Shown one piece after another: positions 24,237-30,951 of a stretch of 32,000 bases of DNA. Under the pieces are notes generated by a model. The model was not told the origin of the DNA. It did not search any database and saw nothing but the letters and a program-made list of their open reading frames with translations. This DNA is from Aliivibrio fischeri ES114 (GTDB lineage: Bacteria; Pseudomonadota; Gammaproteobacteria; Enterobacterales; Vibrionaceae). The first letter of the stretch is position 1, and each line of letters opens with the position of its first letter. The stretch lies in NCBI RefSeq assembly GCF_000011805.1, contig NC_006842.1; one strand, 5' to 3'. The translations under genes were made by a program, and so were the position numbers.

Positions 24237-24578
24237 ATGAGTAAATCCACAACTTATGTCGGCTTTCGATTACCAAATGATGAGCATGAAAAATTCACGG
24301 CCAAAGCGAATAAAGCCAACATGGAGCTGACCGAATTTTTACGCGAAGCCATCTTAAAAAATAAAACCATTATCGTTAAAAAAGAAGAACGATCCGTTGA
24401 TAAACAAAAGCTGATTTTCCTTTACAAGAAAACCTCAAATAACTTGAACCAACTCGCTAAACAGATCCACACAAGTAATAGAGCTGGCACTCTCTCCAGA
24501 GAAAAAATGAACCATGCAATAGCATCTATTGAGAACATCATGAAATTACTAGAACAAGGAATAAACGATGTTAATTAG
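24237..24578 (+). CDS. mobC: MobC-family relaxosome accessory protein
   Basis: I prefer ATG 24237 (MSKSTTYVGFRLP...) because the ORF-track start at 24135 would run through the terminator. RHH-like N-terminus and the MobC signature SNNLNQLAKQIH. Overlaps the relaxase start by 11 nt. Confidence 0.75.
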   Translation: MSKSTTYVGFRLPNDEHEKFTAKANKANMELTEFLREAILKNKTIIVKKEERSVDKQKLIFLYKKTSNNLNQLAKQIHTSNRAGTLSREKMNHAIASIENIMKLLEQGINDVN

Positions 24579-27500
24579 AGTTGGAGGCGGCAACGCTGGA
24601 ATTGGTGATTATCTAAAACACGGGATCAAAAATGGACGTGAGCATACACGAGACGAACTCGACCACAGAGTGATATTAGAAGGCAATTTAGAAGCAACTG
24701 AACTCATTATTAATGGGATGAACACGAATGCAGAACGCTACTTACACATCACTCTCTCGTTCAAAGAAGATCATATTGATAATGAAACATTAAGTAACAT
24801 CACTTCTGAATTTAAAAGCTTTGCAATGAAAGCGTACAACGAAGATGAATATGATTTTTATGCCGAAGCCCATATTCCTAAAATCAAAAGTGTTGTTGAT
24901 AAAAAAACAAAAGATCTTATCGAACGTAAACCACATATCCATGTTGTTATTCCCGAATACAATTTAGTTACCCATAAACGTTTAGAACCTTTTGGTCGAG
25001 TCGAGCTCAACACAAAATACGTTGATGCCTTTCAAGAAGTAATCAATGAAAAATACGGCCTTGCCAGTCCCAAAATGAACATAAGAAGCGATTTCACCAA
25101 TGAAAGCACGGTGATTGAGCGAAGCAAAGGAGATACGTTCAAAGGTGCAAATAAAGCCATTAAGGAAAAGATATTAACGCAAGTGATGGCAATGCCATCA
25201 TCGAGCCTGAACGAATTATCTGACTACTTAATAGGACAAGGTTATGAGGTTAAAGAACGAAATAAAGGTAAGGAAAACAATTACCTCAACATCAAAGAGA
25301 AAGGAAAATCAAAAGGCATAAACTTAAATGATGCCGTATTTAGTGAGCGTTTTTTATCGTTATCCATAGATCAAAAACAACACAATCTCAGCCATTCATC
25401 AACCGATGATTACATTGCTCCAGAGCAGGGTAAATACCAAGCAACCAAAAAACATCATACTGATTTAGAGCACTGGAATGAACATCGCTCTCATGAAGTT
25501 AGGCACATCACGCGACGCAATAGAGCCACTTATAAGGCCATGACTAAAGCTGAAAAAGTGGCATTCATCCAACAGAAAAAAAAGGCATTCTTAAATGACG
25601 AGCACATTATCCCAAGAAGAACACAACGAGATTGTGTTGAAGACATTAACCGAAATCTCAGCGCAGCAAAACGACATTTGTCTCATGCTCAACGAAATTG
25701 TGGAAACATTGAATCAGGAGCAAGAAATATCGCTTATCGACGAGATCTCCTTGCTCTTAATGCCGCTATTCAGCGATGTACAGGACATCAAAAACCATCT
25801 GAACCTATCCCCGATAGGATCACAGGACACAGCAGAGTAACCCAACAAATCCAATCAGACATTATAGAAACCGAAATAGCCAAGCGCATAAGCTCAGATA
25901 TAGCCACAATCAAAAAATCCATTAATGCCTCTGATTTACTTCGTGATTTATCTCAATCTCACGGTGTCATTCCCAAAAAATACGTCATTACTCAAGCTAA
26001 AGATGGCAGTGATCGAATTGTATGTGGAACAAGACAACTGAACGTTGCTGACTTTCTCACAAAAGAAATCGGTATGTCATGGAAGGAAGCGAAACAGCAA
26101 CTAGAGCAGTCCTTTGCAAGACAGCAAGGCCATAACTTACAGCCGAGTACTGAGCACGACAGAGAAGACTTTACGCTTAGATGGCAACCAAGCCATAAAA
26201 AAGAACGAAAGCAAGCGTGGAAAGCACAATACAACAATGAAAAGGCGTATCGCTTTGCTATCAAGAAGACCTTTAATCTTGAAAAAAACGCCATCTATGC
26301 CGATCAAACCCTTTCCAAAAAAGAACGCAATATCGCTCTTTCCATCGCAAGAATGAACAAAATCATTAGTGATATGGAATACCTAGAGCAACAAGCATGG
26401 GAGAGAAATCAACTTAATACGCACTACCCCGATTTAGTTACCGCTCAATACCAACGCTTTGAGCATCGTCATATTCCAATTGAGAGTAAAATTATGAATA
26501 ACCATATTAACGGAACCATTGAAGCACACGGCTCTGACCATTACGAATTTAACAAAGAAAACAAGAAAAGCTACTACGTCAAATTGAAGCTACCGAACAA
26601 TCAAATAAAAACAGTATGGGGCGTTGGATTAGAAACCGCGATAAAAGAAAGTAATGTGAGTATCGGCCAAGCCATCTCATTAAAAAATATCGGTAAGAAA
26701 AATGTAACAGTGCCATCTGATATTAAAGATGAAAACGGAAAAGTACTTAAAACGGTTGACGTTGATACACACCGTAATTATTGGGAAATCACTCCTGAAC
26801 GAACCGTTCAAGATGATATTAATCAAGCTATTTCCTTATCCGATGAATCCATTGAACTAAACAATCAAGGATTAGAAGATCAAGCTGACGATAAAGAGCA
26901 CGACGCATTAATGCTCATGTATTCGATAACTAAAGAGTCAAAAGAAAATCCATTTAATGAGCATACTCACCCACTCCTTCATCGAATGTTTATTAAAGTA
27001 AATAGTGAAAAAATAATCGAGCCTGAAAAAGAAATCAGCCCGACTTCAAAAGATAATACGAAACCAAAACCAATCAGTATAACGCTATTAGATAAACGTG
27101 TTTTATTGGATAGAAATTTAGAAGCAAGCCGTTTATTAATTATGTATCCAAAACTAAAAGAACTGGGTATCAGTGCTGAGCATATTTCTAAAACTGACAA
27201 AGGTGATCGAATTTATTTCAACGATAAATCATTAACTATAAGCAAATTAATGAAAGAAACCATGCAATATAAAACAAAACAAATCGTTGCTGAATTAACC
27301 CCTATTTACGAAACACAAGAAAAAGATAAACAACGTGTTATTGAATATCAGAAACGTTATTTAAATGATCCATCAAATAAAATCGATCTTGGAAAAGAAA
27401 AAACGATTGAATTAAATATTCGCTCAGGCCAAAAAGAGCCAGAAGTCATTAATGAGACTGACAAAGAGCGAACACAACAAGCATCGTTAGCACCACAAAA

Positions 27501-27903
27501 TTATGACGATATTACTCACCAAACCAATGAAAAAGGACACGTAACCTACTCCATGAACAAAGAGCCTATTGTGATTGATCGCGGTGATAATGTTCATATT
27601 GCTCATGATTCAGATAAAGCAATAGAGATCGGATTGCGACTATCAATTGAAAAATTTGGTAAGACACTCGACATTCGAGGCACTGACGAATACAAAGCCA
27701 AGGTGGTTGAAGTTGCCGTTAAAAACAATCTGAAGGTTCAATTCTCAGATCCAACATTGAACGAAATGATGAAAGAAAAAATGCAACAATTCAGAGATGG
27801 TGAAAACGTCATTCAAAAAGCAGAACGTCAATACAAGAAAGACAACGAGCCTCAAAAATCACATGATCTTGATAAAGAAAAATCTCACGATCACAATCGA
27901 TAA
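24568..27903 (+). CDS. conjugative relaxase (MobA/VirD2-type HUH domain) with long C-terminal extension ending in an LPD7-like domain
   Basis: Candidate catalytic Tyr in GIGDYLKHG, motif YLHITLSF, and histidine motif KPHIHVVIPEYN. The C-terminus DSDKAIEIGLRLSIEKFGKTLDIRGTDEYKAKVVEVAVKNNLKVQFSDP resembles LPD7 domains. 1111 aa. Confidence 0.85.
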   Translation: MLIRVGGGNAGIGDYLKHGIKNGREHTRDELDHRVILEGNLEATELIINGMNTNAERYLHITLSFKEDHIDNETLSNITSEFKSFAMKAYNEDEYDFYAEAHIPKIKSVVDKKTKDLIERKPHIHVVIPEYNLVTHKRLEPFGRVELNTKYVDAFQEVINEKYGLASPKMNIRSDFTNESTVIERSKGDTFKGANKAIKEKILTQVMAMPSSSLNELSDYLIGQGYEVKERNKGKENNYLNIKEKGKSKGINLNDAVFSERFLSLSIDQKQHNLSHSSTDDYIAPEQGKYQATKKHHTDLEHWNEHRSHEVRHITRRNRATYKAMTKAEKVAFIQQKKKAFLNDEHIIPRRTQRDCVEDINRNLSAAKRHLSHAQRNCGNIESGARNIAYRRDLLALNAAIQRCTGHQKPSEPIPDRITGHSRVTQQIQSDIIETEIAKRISSDIATIKKSINASDLLRDLSQSHGVIPKKYVITQAKDGSDRIVCGTRQLNVADFLTKEIGMSWKEAKQQLEQSFARQQGHNLQPSTEHDREDFTLRWQPSHKKERKQAWKAQYNNEKAYRFAIKKTFNLEKNAIYADQTLSKKERNIALSIARMNKIISDMEYLEQQAWERNQLNTHYPDLVTAQYQRFEHRHIPIESKIMNNHINGTIEAHGSDHYEFNKENKKSYYVKLKLPNNQIKTVWGVGLETAIKESNVSIGQAISLKNIGKKNVTVPSDIKDENGKVLKTVDVDTHRNYWEITPERTVQDDINQAISLSDESIELNNQGLEDQADDKEHDALMLMYSITKESKENPFNEHTHPLLHRMFIKVNSEKIIEPEKEISPTSKDNTKPKPISITLLDKRVLLDRNLEASRLLIMYPKLKELGISAEHISKTDKGDRIYFNDKSLTISKLMKETMQYKTKQIVAELTPIYETQEKDKQRVIEYQKRYLNDPSNKIDLGKEKTIELNIRSGQKEPEVINETDKERTQQASLAPQNYDDITHQTNEKGHVTYSMNKEPIVIDRGDNVHIAHDSDKAIEIGLRLSIEKFGKTLDIRGTDEYKAKVVEVAVKNNLKVQFSDPTLNEMMKEKMQQFRDGENVIQKAERQYKKDNEPQKSHDLDKEKSHDHNR

Positions 27904-27938
27904 TGAGTTGAAAATGCTACGTCAGTAGTGAAGGGTTT

Positions 27939-27956
27939 CAAAGGGTTTACCCTTTG
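27939..27956. promoter_or_regulatory. 8-bp perfect inverted repeat CAAAGGGT-tt-ACCCTTTG flanked by TACGT(C)AGTAG direct repeats
   Basis: IR arms are 27939-27946 and 27949-27956. An AAGGGTTT half-site is repeated at 27931-27938. Direct repeats TACGTCAGTAG (27918-27928) and TACGTAGTAG (27980-27989). Function is not established. Confidence 0.4.
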
Positions 27957-28027
27957 GCACAAGGGATGTTTTTGCCCAATACGTAGTAGGGGGTGAAAAC
28001 GTCCCCGTCGTGCCTATCTTTGATCTA

Positions 28028-28133
28028 GGAAGCATCGAGAAACCAAATAAAGACCATCAGATACCACAAAGGAAGCGTAAAGAAGCAAAAAAGACCAGAA
28101 AGAAACCATGAAAAAACCAAAAAAGAAGCCTTA
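28028..28133 (+). repeat. phased array of ten 10-11-bp units (RGAAGC and A-N-ACCA motifs), two sets of five, directly upstream of the stb-like operon
   Basis: Motif starts: GGAAGC 28028, AAACCA 28040, AGACCA 28051, ATACCA 28061, GGAAGC 28071, AGAAGC 28081, AGACCA 28092, AAACCA 28103, AAACCA 28114, AGAAGC 28124. The top strand is almost T-free. Confidence 0.65.
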
Positions 28134-28135
28134 TT

Positions 28136-28651
28136 ATGAATAATTCCATAGAACGCTTACGTGAAGGGATCCAAGAGTTAATTAATACCCACAGCAACGC
28201 ATCTAAGATCTACATAATAAGATCTTTATTTGATCTGCTTGATGACGCAATTAAGAACAGAGTATCTATAGATATTCTTGTTAATTACCTCAATGAAAAC
28301 CATGTAAACATCAGTAAGCATTATCTTAAAAATGCACTATTACGGATACGTAGAGAAAAAGGCATCACCAAAAAAAAACCATCTCAAGTATCGCTATCGC
28401 AAAACCACCAAGTCACAAGCGATAAATCGCTTGTGACCACAACAACGAAAAAAAGTAACGAACCCGATTATCAAGCTGAGTTCGACGACATCAATCAGCG
28501 TTATAAAAACGCAGAAACCACAGAAGAAAAATTCATCATTCTTGGTGGAGACCCCAAAAAACTTGATGGACATTCTTTGAGAAAACAACGCGAAATGTGC
28601 ATCGAATTAAAAACCCAATTTAATCGTAAATACCGTCCATTTATTAAATAG
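28136..28651 (+). CDS. hypothetical protein, positional analogue of a StbA-type DNA-binding adaptor
   Basis: 171 aa with a helical N-terminal ~80 aa, a Lys-rich hinge encoded partly by an A9 run, and a polar C-terminus. First gene upstream of the StbB-like ATPase. No motif recognised. Confidence 0.4.
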   Translation: MNNSIERLREGIQELINTHSNASKIYIIRSLFDLLDDAIKNRVSIDILVNYLNENHVNISKHYLKNALLRIRREKGITKKKPSQVSLSQNHQVTSDKSLVTTTTKKSNEPDYQAEFDDINQRYKNAETTEEKFIILGGDPKKLDGHSLRKQREMCIELKTQFNRKYRPFIK

Positions 28652-28662
28652 AGAATTAAAAT

Positions 28663-29361
28663 ATGAAAATTGCAGTAATTAACTTTTCAGGTAACGTTGG
28701 TAAATCTGTTATTTCACAGCACTTATTACAACCTCGTATGAATGATGCAAAAATCATTGCCGTTGAATCCATTAATTCAGATGGCACAAATAATGAAACC
28801 ATTAAAGGCAAAGAATTTGCCGATATTATGGAAAGCATCAGTGAAATGGATGATGTTATTGTTGATATTGGTGCATCTAACGTCGAAGACTTTATGAAAA
28901 AAATGAAATTATTCAGTGGAAGCCAAGACGATTTTGATTATTTTATTGTTCCAACAATAAATAAACCAAAACAATTAACTGATACACAATCCACTATTAA
29001 TGAATTACACGAACTAGATATTGACCCTGAATGCATTAAAGTTGTTTTTAATATGGTTGATATTGACGACAATATGAAACGTGTTTTTGCCGATCTAATT
29101 GATGATTGTGACCACATGGCAACCATTAATACAAAAGCCATTATTTATGAAAACGAGTTATTCACTCGTTTAAAAAGCGAATCAAAAAGTATTGCTGAAT
29201 TAATTAATGACGACACCGATTATAAAACTCAAATTCAAGCAACCGATAACCGTATTACACGTCGTGAATTATCCCATAAGCTAGGAACGAAACGATTAGC
29301 AATAGGCGTTTCAAAACAGCTCGATAATACATTTAAAGTTCTCTTTGGTAAGAAGGCATAA
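28663..29361 (+). CDS. StbB/ParA-like P-loop ATPase
   Basis: The N-terminus MKIAVINFSGNVGKSVISQHLLQPRM matches my memory of the StbB-type deviant Walker A (NFSGNVGK[ST]). Walker B-like DDVIVDIGASN. 232 aa. Confidence 0.7.
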   Translation: MKIAVINFSGNVGKSVISQHLLQPRMNDAKIIAVESINSDGTNNETIKGKEFADIMESISEMDDVIVDIGASNVEDFMKKMKLFSGSQDDFDYFIVPTINKPKQLTDTQSTINELHELDIDPECIKVVFNMVDIDDNMKRVFADLIDDCDHMATINTKAIIYENELFTRLKSESKSIAELINDDTDYKTQIQATDNRITRRELSHKLGTKRLAIGVSKQLDNTFKVLFGKKA

Positions 29362-29364
29362 TAT

Positions 29365-29925
29365 ATGAGCTCAGAAGAACTAGTTTTACCATCCAAACCA
29401 ATGACGTCATATCAAGAAGCGTATTTACGCGAAATATTCAGTGAAATCATTTTACTTCAAAAGAAACTCACTGAAATTGGCAACGAATCAACCATGCGCA
29501 TTGGTATCACTCAAAATATTATTGATGAGCATTTAGAGCGTGGCTCTAAAGCTCTTGATAATTATACTCAAGCGGCCAACGCGCATTTCTCTGCGACAAA
29601 GCAAGAACTCAAAGACATTGCCGATAATGAAGTCAAAACCAGTATTACAAAATCACTCATTGATGCACACCATCAATTACTGCTCGCTAATCCGCCTAGA
29701 ATCGCCCTACGCTCCGTTTTAATGATGACCCTAGTCGCTTCTATCGTTGCAAGCACTATCGGCTTAGGAGGCGGTTATATTGCGTATAACACCCTAAACA
29801 AGAATCGATTGAGTGCCGATGAAATTCAATACATCGATAAAGGCCGATTGCTAAAGCAATCGTGGCCGATATTGTCCCCACAAACCAAAAAAGAATTAGA
29901 GCAAGCCGCGCTCGGTATTCGTTAA
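29365..29925 (+). CDS. hypothetical coiled-coil protein with C-terminal TM segment (StbC position)
   Basis: 186 aa. Starts 3 nt after the ATPase stop. TM is VLMMTLVASIVASTIGLGGGYIAY. No family recognised. Confidence 0.45.
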   Translation: MSSEELVLPSKPMTSYQEAYLREIFSEIILLQKKLTEIGNESTMRIGITQNIIDEHLERGSKALDNYTQAANAHFSATKQELKDIADNEVKTSITKSLIDAHHQLLLANPPRIALRSVLMMTLVASIVASTIGLGGGYIAYNTLNKNRLSADEIQYIDKGRLLKQSWPILSPQTKKELEQAALGIR

Positions 29926-30170: not shown

Positions 30171-30210
30171 TGGATCATGATTGTTGGGGATACTTTTTAA
30201 GGCTATCACC

Positions 30211-30951
30211 ATGCAAATAAAAACAACCATCAAGGCCATCGCCTTGGGGCTTTCGCTCACCATCCCTTCTGTACACGCTGGATTTCCTGTTTCTGTATTA
30301 GTTGATGTTCCTGGTCAATTAGCACAATTTCAAAATATGGCTCAAATGCTTAAGGAATACGCCACGATGCTAGACCAGCTCAACAAGATGCAAGAGCAAT
30401 TACAGCAAATGGAACGGGAATATAATTCCGTGACAGGGACACGGGGACTTGGGAACATTTTAAACAATCCTGATTTTTCAAAACACTTACCTGATAACTG
30501 GCAAACCATCTTAAGAAATATTCGTTATAACGGGTATGAGGGATTAGATGGTGCAGCAAAAGCATTGCGTGACGCGAGTAAAGTCATTGATTCTTGTGAG
30601 TACATTGAAGATCGAGTGGAACGTCAAAACTGCGCCGCCCTTGCACTGAAACCAGTGCAAGACCAAGCATTTGCAACAAATGCTTATCAAAAATCGTATG
30701 ATCGCACCGCTCAAATTGAATCATTAATGAATGAAATCAACAGAACGCGAGATCCAAAAGCCATCGCTGAATTAAGCGCACGTATTCAAGCTGAGCAAGC
30801 ACTTATCCAAAACGAACAAACCAAACTTTCCATGTATCAGGCAACCAGTGAATCAGAGCAACGTTTGTTGCTTCAACAACAAAAAGAAATTAACTCAAGA
30901 ACATGGCGAAGCAAAAACTATGGTGCAGATGTACCACCAATGGAGTTTTAA
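30211..30951 (+). CDS. virB5: VirB5/TrbJ-family T4SS minor pilus protein
   Basis: I prefer ATG 30211 (RBS AAGG at 30199-30202) to the TTG at 30181. Signal peptide ...TIPSVHA|GFPV. Typical FPV..LVDVPGQLAQ...QL.QMQEQLQQM coiled-coil start. Confidence 0.75.
   Translation: MQIKTTIKAIALGLSLTIPSVHAGFPVSVLVDVPGQLAQFQNMAQMLKEYATMLDQLNKMQEQLQQMEREYNSVTGTRGLGNILNNPDFSKHLPDNWQTILRNIRYNGYEGLDGAAKALRDASKVIDSCEYIEDRVERQNCAALALKPVQDQAFATNAYQKSYDRTAQIESLMNEINRTRDPKAIAELSARIQAEQALIQNEQTKLSMYQATSESEQRLLLQQQKEINSRTWRSKNYGADVPPMEF

Follow-up and report, generated by a model that had tools for sequence, protein, structure and literature searches.

The closest described relative of the element reported here is the stbS site belonging to the stbABC operon of the IncW plasmid R388; this site consists of two sets of five 9-bp direct repeats (stbDR) placed 2 bp apart (a cycle of 11 bp), upstream of the gene stbA and adjoining the origin of transfer, oriT (10.1101/2022.04.29.490116; PMC3098194). 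The protein StbA binds cooperatively through its N-terminal domain, with one dimer per two repeats, and stbS is needed for plasmid stability and not for conjugation (10.1101/2022.04.29.490116). StbA represses its own promoter and four others, and StbA and StbB affect conjugation in opposite directions (10.1101/2022.04.29.490116; PMC3098194). Here we describe an array of ten direct repeat units, at positions 28027 to 28133 of the + strand, in a stretch of 32,000 nucleotides from Aliivibrio fischeri ES114 (contig NC_006842.1 of assembly GCF_000011805.1), the whole of which is called the window below. The array lies just upstream of a gene coding for a protein of 171 amino acids (aa). It is very probably the cognate binding site predicted for this StbA-type protein, that is to say a centromere and operator of the stbS kind.

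The units of the array have the consensus A-R-R-A-M-S-C-A and start at 28027, 28038, 28049, 28059, 28070, 28080, 28090, 28101, 28112 and 28123. Two types can be distinguished by their core, AGC (type S) or ACC (type C), and they follow each other in the order S C C C S S C C C S, with four units of type S and six of type C. When the units are anchored on the core C, the spacings are 11, 11, 10, 11, 10, 10, 11, 11 and 11, with a mean of 10.67 bp. The preliminary description of this DNA had listed ten hexamers starting at 28028, 28040, 28051, 28061, 28071, 28081, 28092, 28103, 28114 and 28124; on re-reading every start is exact, as are the spacings given for them (12, 11, 10, 10, 10, 11, 11, 11 and 10). 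These hexamers are successively GGAAGC, AAACCA, AGACCA, ATACCA, GGAAGC, AGAAGC, AGACCA, AAACCA, AAACCA and AGAAGC, and the motifs GAAGC and ACCA, named separately in that description, are essentially one core position apart. Between the end of the array and the ATG at 28136 there are 2-6 nt, and the last unit takes the place that a Shine-Dalgarno sequence would have. The top strand is composed of 56% A and 7.5% T. The poverty in T that had been pointed out is real: the 5 T counted in 28038-28130 are the lowest value of all the 93-nt segments in the 32 kb (median 25, first percentile 14).

In the array, 4 copies of GAAGC were counted where 0.15 would be expected, and 6 copies of ACCA where the expectation is 0.77. 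Tandem Repeats Finder and a generic repeat finder catch only fragments of the array, the units being short and degenerate, so that a motif-chain test was used; likewise, a low-threshold scan with a position weight matrix was unspecific in the window, and a phased-chain criterion was adopted. The hexamer definition is matched 177 times on the window's + strand; the array is the sole phased chain of more than 2 units. It is likewise the only such chain on both strands of the complete A. fischeri plasmid pES657-44 (48.9 kb), a sister plasmid described below. Among 5000 dinucleotide-preserving shuffles of the segment 28017-28138 (122 nt), the longest chain was 3 and the highest motif count was 6. 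The autocorrelation at lag 11 has a z of 4.1, and the periodogram has its maximum at 10.5 bp, a peak reached by 2 of 200 shuffles. The array is real and far beyond chance.

The arrangement of the units into two super-repeats of ~53 bp, proposed at the outset, is confirmed for the order of the types (S-CCC-S followed by S-CCC-S). It is statistically weak, since a perfect five-unit repeat of types is obtained by chance in ~10 of 210 arrangements (5%) of four S and six C, and the two halves are only loosely alike in sequence. As a defining feature, the two sets of five had to be given up: the units are contiguous, and the relatives contain 10-15 contiguous units with super-patterns of 3, 5 or 6 units. 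Intrinsic bending had also been suggested. With parameter-free AA/TT phasing as a proxy of curvature, the array ranks first in the window, by a narrow margin (14.5 vs 14.3); this gives modest support, and bending of the array is possible.

The gene following the array (28136..28651, + strand) encodes a protein with an N-terminal helix-turn-helix (HTH) domain (residues ~1-78), a disordered linker (79-108) and a helical C-terminal domain (112-169). The protein has no match in Pfam, in NCBIfam or, by single-sequence phmmer, in PDB, and its relation to StbA is seen by profiles only. A family profile of 18 members (alignment A1) finds a sole significant PDB entry, 7pc1, the tri-helical HTH domain by which R388 StbA binds DNA (E=1.1e-5, residues 12-69). 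For the comparison of StbA and of the repeats, the IncW plasmid pIE321 stood in for R388: its StbA is aligned by hhalign over residues 7-85 with a probability of 95.9% (E=5.7e-9), the pairwise BLASTP match to StbA being weak alone (E=0.002). The AlphaFold2 model (mean of the predicted local distance difference test, pLDDT, of 75) is all-helical, without N-terminal strand; it places the N-terminal helices at 3-18, 24-40, 45-54 and 61-75 and a helical C-terminal domain at 112-169, the pLDDT falling below 50 over 79-108 between the structured domains. The top PDB match of this model by Foldseek is again 7pc1, with a probability of 0.90 and a target template-modelling (TM) score of 0.65, but with E=1.3 for this short domain. 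The StbA proteins are 135-175 aa in length; their N-terminal HTH is conserved, their middle is disordered and their C-terminus is variable (10.1101/2022.04.29.490116), and the 171-aa protein has both this size and this build of two domains around a disordered linker. By its N-terminal domain, the 171-aa product is, on the evidence of the profiles, a StbA-type protein.

An exhaustive profile search recovered 301 clusters (50% identity) at E<=1e-3. About 30 of them match the full length; the others are proteins of 130-160 aa matched in the N-terminal domain only, many of them 30-51% identical to IncW StbA, which provides transitive links between the 171-aa protein and StbA. Within the family the N- and C-terminal domains reassort, since P0005 is 88% identical to the window protein in the N-terminal domain and 28% in the C-terminal domain, and P0008 is 40% and 74% identical, respectively. 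An invariant L-G-G motif is present in the C-terminal domain (residues 136-138 of the window protein). The second gene of the operon (28663..29361, + strand) codes for a deviant Walker-A ATPase of 232 aa. The StbB-like ATPase announced by the preliminary description is a true member of the StbB family, as it matches NF041292 of NCBIfam at 8.4e-82 with 274.1 bits (cutoff 200) over residues 1-227. By tblastn, annotated stbB genes with 30-42% identity to it were found in 1952 plasmid records.

The two sets of five phased 9-bp repeats that had been cited for R388 agree with the literature (10.1101/2022.04.29.490116; PMC3098194) and with our reading of IncW pIE321. On the stbA coding strand of pIE321, the repeats are ATGATGCA-like and arranged in two sets of five with an 11-bp period, ~40 bp lying between the sets. 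The window units, AAGAAGCA or AGAAACCA, have the same orientation as ATGATGCA and 6 of 8 core positions in common with it. The R388 stbDR consensus 5'-T/CTGCATCAT is not matched by the window units (ARRAMSCA), and the window unit is a specificity variant of the IncW repeat, not the same site. The likeness to R388 comprises the order oriT, direct-repeat array, stbA, stbB and third gene, a homologous N-terminal HTH in a protein whose two domains are joined by a disordered linker, ten units that recur every ~11 bp, and repeats of similar core lying in the same orientation to the gene. On the other hand, the MOBP relaxase gene of the window is transcribed towards the array, whereas R388 has a divergent MOBF trw operon; the spacings are a mixture of 10 and 11 bp instead of strictly 11; and the C-terminal domain of the protein is unrelated in sequence.

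Syntenic loci were collected from plasmids of Photobacterium damselae, Vibrio sp. B1ASS3, V. parahaemolyticus (two types), Dongshaea marina and Plesiomonas shigelloides, and further loci from Aliivibrio genomes and from metagenomes encoding proteins 46-71% identical to the 171-aa protein (loci are numbered with L and proteins with P). The relaxase gene is upstream of the array in all syntenic loci. Loss of the 10-11-bp phasing in homologous regions had been named as a refuting observation, and conservation of the phasing rather than of the sequence as a check; the phasing is kept. Of the 12 syntenic loci, 11 (from Aliivibrio, Vibrio, Dongshaea and Plesiomonas) contain 10, 11, 13 or 15 direct units in the same slot, spaced by 10 or 11 bp only, with mean spacings of 10.60-10.92 bp, and the sequence of the repeat has changed. 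The motifs are GGAAGCA/GAAACCA in Plesiomonas (15 units, with a super-repeat of 64 bp), GTAGCA/AGACCA in L015 and L010, AAGCA with interspersed TCACCA in L012 and L013, ATCACCA/ATAACCA in L017, L006, L004 and L005, GTCAC/GTCAAC in L007, and RRAAC/AGAC in L009. A lone GAAGCA is found among the TCACCA units of L004 and L005. The periodogram was run on the window and on 11 syntenic loci (all except L009), and in each of them it peaks at 10.5-11.0 bp. Measured against shuffles at ~5%, the individual peak falls short in four arrays (L017, L007, L004 and, marginally, L013 and L015), so the periodicity argument rests on the consistent position of the peak.

In five of these loci (L004, L005, L007, L012 and L013) the spacings follow one and the same pattern, 11x6, 10, 11x5, with motifs of three different sets, and their distance from oriT to ATG is near-equal (153 nt, and 149 in L007). 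In these loci the register is conserved and the sequence that is read has been turned over. This result bears on the explanation that no sequence-specific site exists, the array being an A-rich, T-poor leader or spacer whose periodicity stems from curvature, from replication slippage or from selection for an unstructured leading end of the transferred strand. The composition of the top strand fits such an element, and so does its folding as single-stranded DNA (ssDNA), which is essentially unstructured (-0.8 kcal/mol), although shuffles of it that preserve the dinucleotides are no more structured. The array would also enter the recipient ahead of all other DNA if nic is placed on the top strand in GTCGTGCCTATCT, a conserved sequence at the end of oriT described below. 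However, the relatives keep the phasing with motifs that are not A-rich (TCACCA, GTCAAC), the cores recur far above the expectation from local composition, and the identical register of the five loci indicates a constraint on unit positions and not slippage. We regard this explanation as extremely improbable.

The comparison of the window with L012, another A. fischeri plasmid, shows how the locus has diverged. The nucleotide identity is of 88% at the 3' end of the relaxase gene, 98% in oriT, 68% in the array, 62% in the StbA N-terminal domain, 73% in the StbA linker and C-terminal domain, 82% in stbB and 92% in the third gene, so that the trough of similarity is centred on the array and the DNA-binding domain. 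Over 66 pairs of loci, the similarity of the arrays in 5-mers correlates with the identity of the recognition helix (rho 0.51) and of the N-terminal domain (0.38), and not with that of the C-terminal domain (-0.02). Where the N- and C-terminal domains reassort, the arrays follow the N-terminal domain. A helix 3 that begins with YLKN, as in the window protein, P0001, P0002, P0005, P0006 and the Plesiomonas protein, goes with arrays of AGCA and RACCA, and LRN goes with TCACCA arrays. The Plesiomonas protein has the YLKN helix motif, and its array the GAAGCA/GAAACCA motifs, in common with the window despite an overall identity of 27%. These correlations, which are phylogenetically uncorrected, suggest that the array motif tracks StbA's N-terminal domain and its recognition helix.

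The same data bear on the possibility that another protein binds the repeats (an accessory protein of the relaxosome whose gene precedes that of the relaxase, an initiator of replication or a host factor) and that the StbA-like protein binds elsewhere. Genes for small mobilization proteins are indeed present upstream of the relaxase in relatives, and the choice of the StbA-like protein as the binder is a prediction. Against another binder, the array diverges together with the StbA N-terminal domain between two plasmids whose oriT and relaxase C-terminus remain 98% and 88% identical, and its similarity tracks the StbA recognition helix; moreover, no rep gene is adjacent and the units of 10-11 bp are shorter than iterons. 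Another binder is, in our view, very unlikely.

With the StbA-type protein as the binder, a mechanism can be proposed by analogy with R388. One N-terminal HTH domain would read each unit of 10-11 bp, and neighbours would bind cooperatively; at one dimer per two units, as in R388, about five dimers would be accommodated on the window array. Because the units recur every 10.67 bp, the proteins would all be placed on one face of the helix, where they could make up an unbroken nucleoprotein filament that reaches from the oriT edge as far as the start codon. The array extends over the 5' leader and the Shine-Dalgarno position, and for this reason the complex is proposed to repress the operon composed of stbA, stbB and the third gene. 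It may in addition anchor and position the plasmid copies for stable inheritance and, with the StbB ATPase, gate the access of the adjacent oriT to the conjugation machinery.

Several observations weigh against the assignment to a stbS-like site. The array is contiguous up to the start codon, without the ~40-bp spacer that splits the R388 repeats into two sets, and it interleaves units with AGC and ACC cores. No further repeat clusters (phased chains of more than 2 units) were detected elsewhere on pES657-44 or in the window, unlike R388 with its extra sets of repeats at other promoters, and a wider StbA regulon is therefore not indicated. A scan for sigma-70 promoters in and next to the array gave no convincing site for the operon; the best candidate found by eye, GTGAAA-16-TATCTT at 27993-28020, matches 8 of 12 positions and is weak and imperfectly conserved. 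The syntenic locus from P. damselae (L003:5083-5293, plasmid pFPPDNB1-1) has no clean array. The correlations between array and domain come from 12 related loci that are not phylogenetically independent. Finally, the binding and the roles in stability and transfer that are proposed for this plasmid family are argued by analogy.

The position of the array next to oriT was also considered. A conserved oriT-like region, recognized by homology and by its hairpin, extends from 27932 to 28020 on the + strand. Within it there is an inverted repeat of 8 bp without mismatches (27939-27956), then a long hairpin (~27963-28005), and it ends with GTCGTGCCTATCT, which is kept in all relatives, ~8 nt separating the 3' arm of the hairpin from GTCGTGCCTATCT. 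The region is 90% identical to the mobilizable plasmid pES213 and 83% identical to plasmids of P. damselae, and plasmids of Vibrio cyclitrophicus match too; as ssDNA, it has the folding energy of a strong hairpin, -18.8 kcal/mol (z=-3.9). With an inverted repeat and then GTCGTGCCTATCT, the region has the anatomy of an oriT, and GTCGTGCCTATCT is likely the putative nic region. From the usual order, hairpin then nic, the operon would lie on the leading side of oriT, which is transferred first. The array starts ~10 nt past the conserved end of oriT and fills the slot from there to the start of the operon.

In the IncP plasmid RP4, TraK is a StbA homologue that binds between nic and traK (PMC3098194). 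By analogy, the array may be a site of relaxosome architecture, on which the same StbA/TraK-like binder coats or wraps the DNA flanking nic to aid the relaxase in opening and nicking oriT and has no role in vegetative segregation. The RP4 operon traK-traL-traM resembles the window locus by its MOBP/MPF-T backbone and by its order, in which a small DNA-binding protein comes first after oriT and is followed by an ATPase of the StbB/TraL type; the likeness to TraK itself is by description only. To our knowledge, no discrete phased repeat array has been described for TraK. The short distance from oriT, the MOBP and MPF_T types of the plasmid, the lack of other operator-like clusters on the sister plasmid and the AA/TT phasing, which fits a bent region, are all compatible with a TraK-type role. 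On the opposite side, the equivalent site of R388 is required for stability and not for conjugation (10.1101/2022.04.29.490116), and functions in transfer and in segregation are not mutually exclusive. A site devoted to transfer alone appears possible but rather unlikely, and we retain the stbS-like centromere and operator.

Other systems with phased repeats were compared. In the centromeres of type II, ParR/parC (R1, pB171, pSK41), and of type III, TubR/tubC, direct repeats phased with the helical turn are located upstream of the partition operon, are autoregulatory and are coated cooperatively by a small protein (10.1101/2022.04.29.490116). The window has in common with them a phased direct-repeat array upstream of an operon. 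However, ParR is a ribbon-helix-helix protein associated with the actin-like ParM, and TubR is associated with the tubulin-like TubZ, whereas the window encodes a StbA-type HTH protein and a StbB Walker-type ATPase; the ATPase of StbB type is not needed for stability in R388. Type II partition (ParM/ParR/parC) was rejected, the neighbours being a StbA-type HTH protein and a StbB Walker ATPase and the model being all-helical. Replication iterons, which are typically 17-22 bp in length, were also rejected, in view of the units of 10-11 bp and of the flanks formed by the relaxase gene and the stb operon.

Several further candidates were discarded. On the + strand, the array is not covered by any open reading frame (ORF) of at least 40 aa, and the 171-aa ORF cannot be extended upstream because of an in-frame stop at 28109. 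A mini-ORF of 11 codons (28108-28143, MKKPKKKPYYE) begins inside the array and overlaps, out of frame, the ATG of the 171-aa gene; it is not kept in the relatives and probably just results from the A-rich repeats. The array has no Rfam match at E<=1. The promoter scan returned a match at 28108-28137, from which transcription would start inside the gene.

The locus is a divergent example of StbA/StbB/stbS in a plasmid family without earlier annotation of this kind; it is a known device and not a new type of system, and its existence will not surprise the specialist. StbA/stbS ensures segregation without an NTPase of its own and couples vegetative inheritance to conjugation. We know of no experimental study of StbA/stbS outside R388. 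The present data extend the system to plasmids of the MOBP/MPF-T kind in marine Vibrionaceae, among them the pES100 family found in the squid symbiont A. fischeri; pES213, whose oriT is similar to that of the pES100 family, is the parent of widely used Vibrio vectors. The value of these loci lies in the comparative series that they form, with the same register, switching motifs and reassorting N- and C-terminal domains. Such a series makes tractable the cooperative reading of direct repeats by a monomeric HTH, the specificity of StbA and the question whether the arrays determine incompatibility. In annotation, the name StbA-like can be given to the "hypothetical protein" encoded upstream of stbB in these plasmids, and the intergenic array can be marked as the site where it probably binds.

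A more tentative proposal, on which we lean to the doubtful side, is that the array and the StbA N-terminal domain constitute a fast-evolving specificity cassette inserted between a near-invariant oriT and conserved StbB and third genes. Mixed arrays would then be switching intermediates that keep the helical register, and the drive may be the avoidance of incompatibility or of cross-control of transfer. Examples of mixed arrays are the window (4 AGC and 6 ACC units), L012 (AAGCA and TCACCA) and L004 (TCACCA and a single GAAGCA). If this proposal is true, one position of the recognition helix (K in YLKN, R in LRN) may help to set the core that is read, and co-resident plasmids of Vibrionaceae would carry a natural series of orthogonal StbA/stbS pairs.

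The window is part of a conjugative A. fischeri plasmid of the pES100 type (MOBP/MPF-T). Over 27600-29400 it is 99.7% identical to pES657-44 (NC_016853.1, 48,951 bp), which originates from the squid Euprymna scolopes and is typed as conjugative, MOBP and MPF_T by MOB-suite. Small indels account for most of the differences between the pES657-44 record and the window (one A is missing there from an A-run of the array, for example), and the fragmented annotation of the relaxase, stbA-like and stbB genes in that record has the look of homopolymer sequencing error. All the long ORFs of the window are on the + strand. The local order is relaxase, an intergenic region of 232 bp, the 171-aa ORF, the StbB-family ATPase, a 186-aa ORF, VirB5 and VirB6. 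The relaxase (24568..27903, + strand, 1111 aa), directly upstream of the array and co-oriented with it, is of the MOBP type with a LPD7 domain (Pfam LPD7, 1.7e-18); its matches to NCBIfam MobP1 and TraI_MobP are partial and weak, with scores far under the family cut-offs. The third gene of the operon (29365..29925, + strand), an ORF syntenic in relatives, occupies the StbC/TraM position, and its product of 186 aa has no significant match in Pfam or NCBIfam. The longest ORF for VirB6/TrbL (start at 30903) overlaps by 49 nt the end of the VirB5 ORF (30181-30951), and the true start of VirB6 is probably further downstream.

Concerning the locus L003 of P. damselae, the spacer is of 200 bp, T-rich, and contains only three or four copies of AGGAGTT / TACTAGGGAGTTT; its periodogram still peaks at 10.6 bp (reached by 4 of 200 shuffles). 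The "18 units" attributed to this locus by the dynamic programming parse are not meaningful, as this parse imposes chains of 10-11 bp on any sequence. The start of helix 3 differs in the L003 StbA-like protein (GYLIE).

Stand-alone StbA N-terminal domain proteins of 79 and 83 aa are encoded in pES213 (L002:1121-1360) and in a contig of A. salmonicida (L009:1245-1496), respectively, with an hhalign probability of 98% to the family, and both genes sit a short way downstream of an oriT of this same type. The short gene of A. salmonicida comes before a full-length copy of 173 aa, and a phased RRAAC/AGAC array of ~13 units is found upstream of it. Finally, the family patterns detected StbA-like proteins of Betaproteobacteria, of 143 and 138 aa, in two metagenome-assembled genomes belonging to Burkholderia (L022) and Gallionella (L023), respectively. 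In the former, ACACAAC direct repeats are present upstream of the StbA-like gene (L022:1300-1410), and in the latter an oriT-like sequence, GGGGAGAATCCCC...GTAGTGCCTAT, is akin to the oriT of Vibrionaceae.

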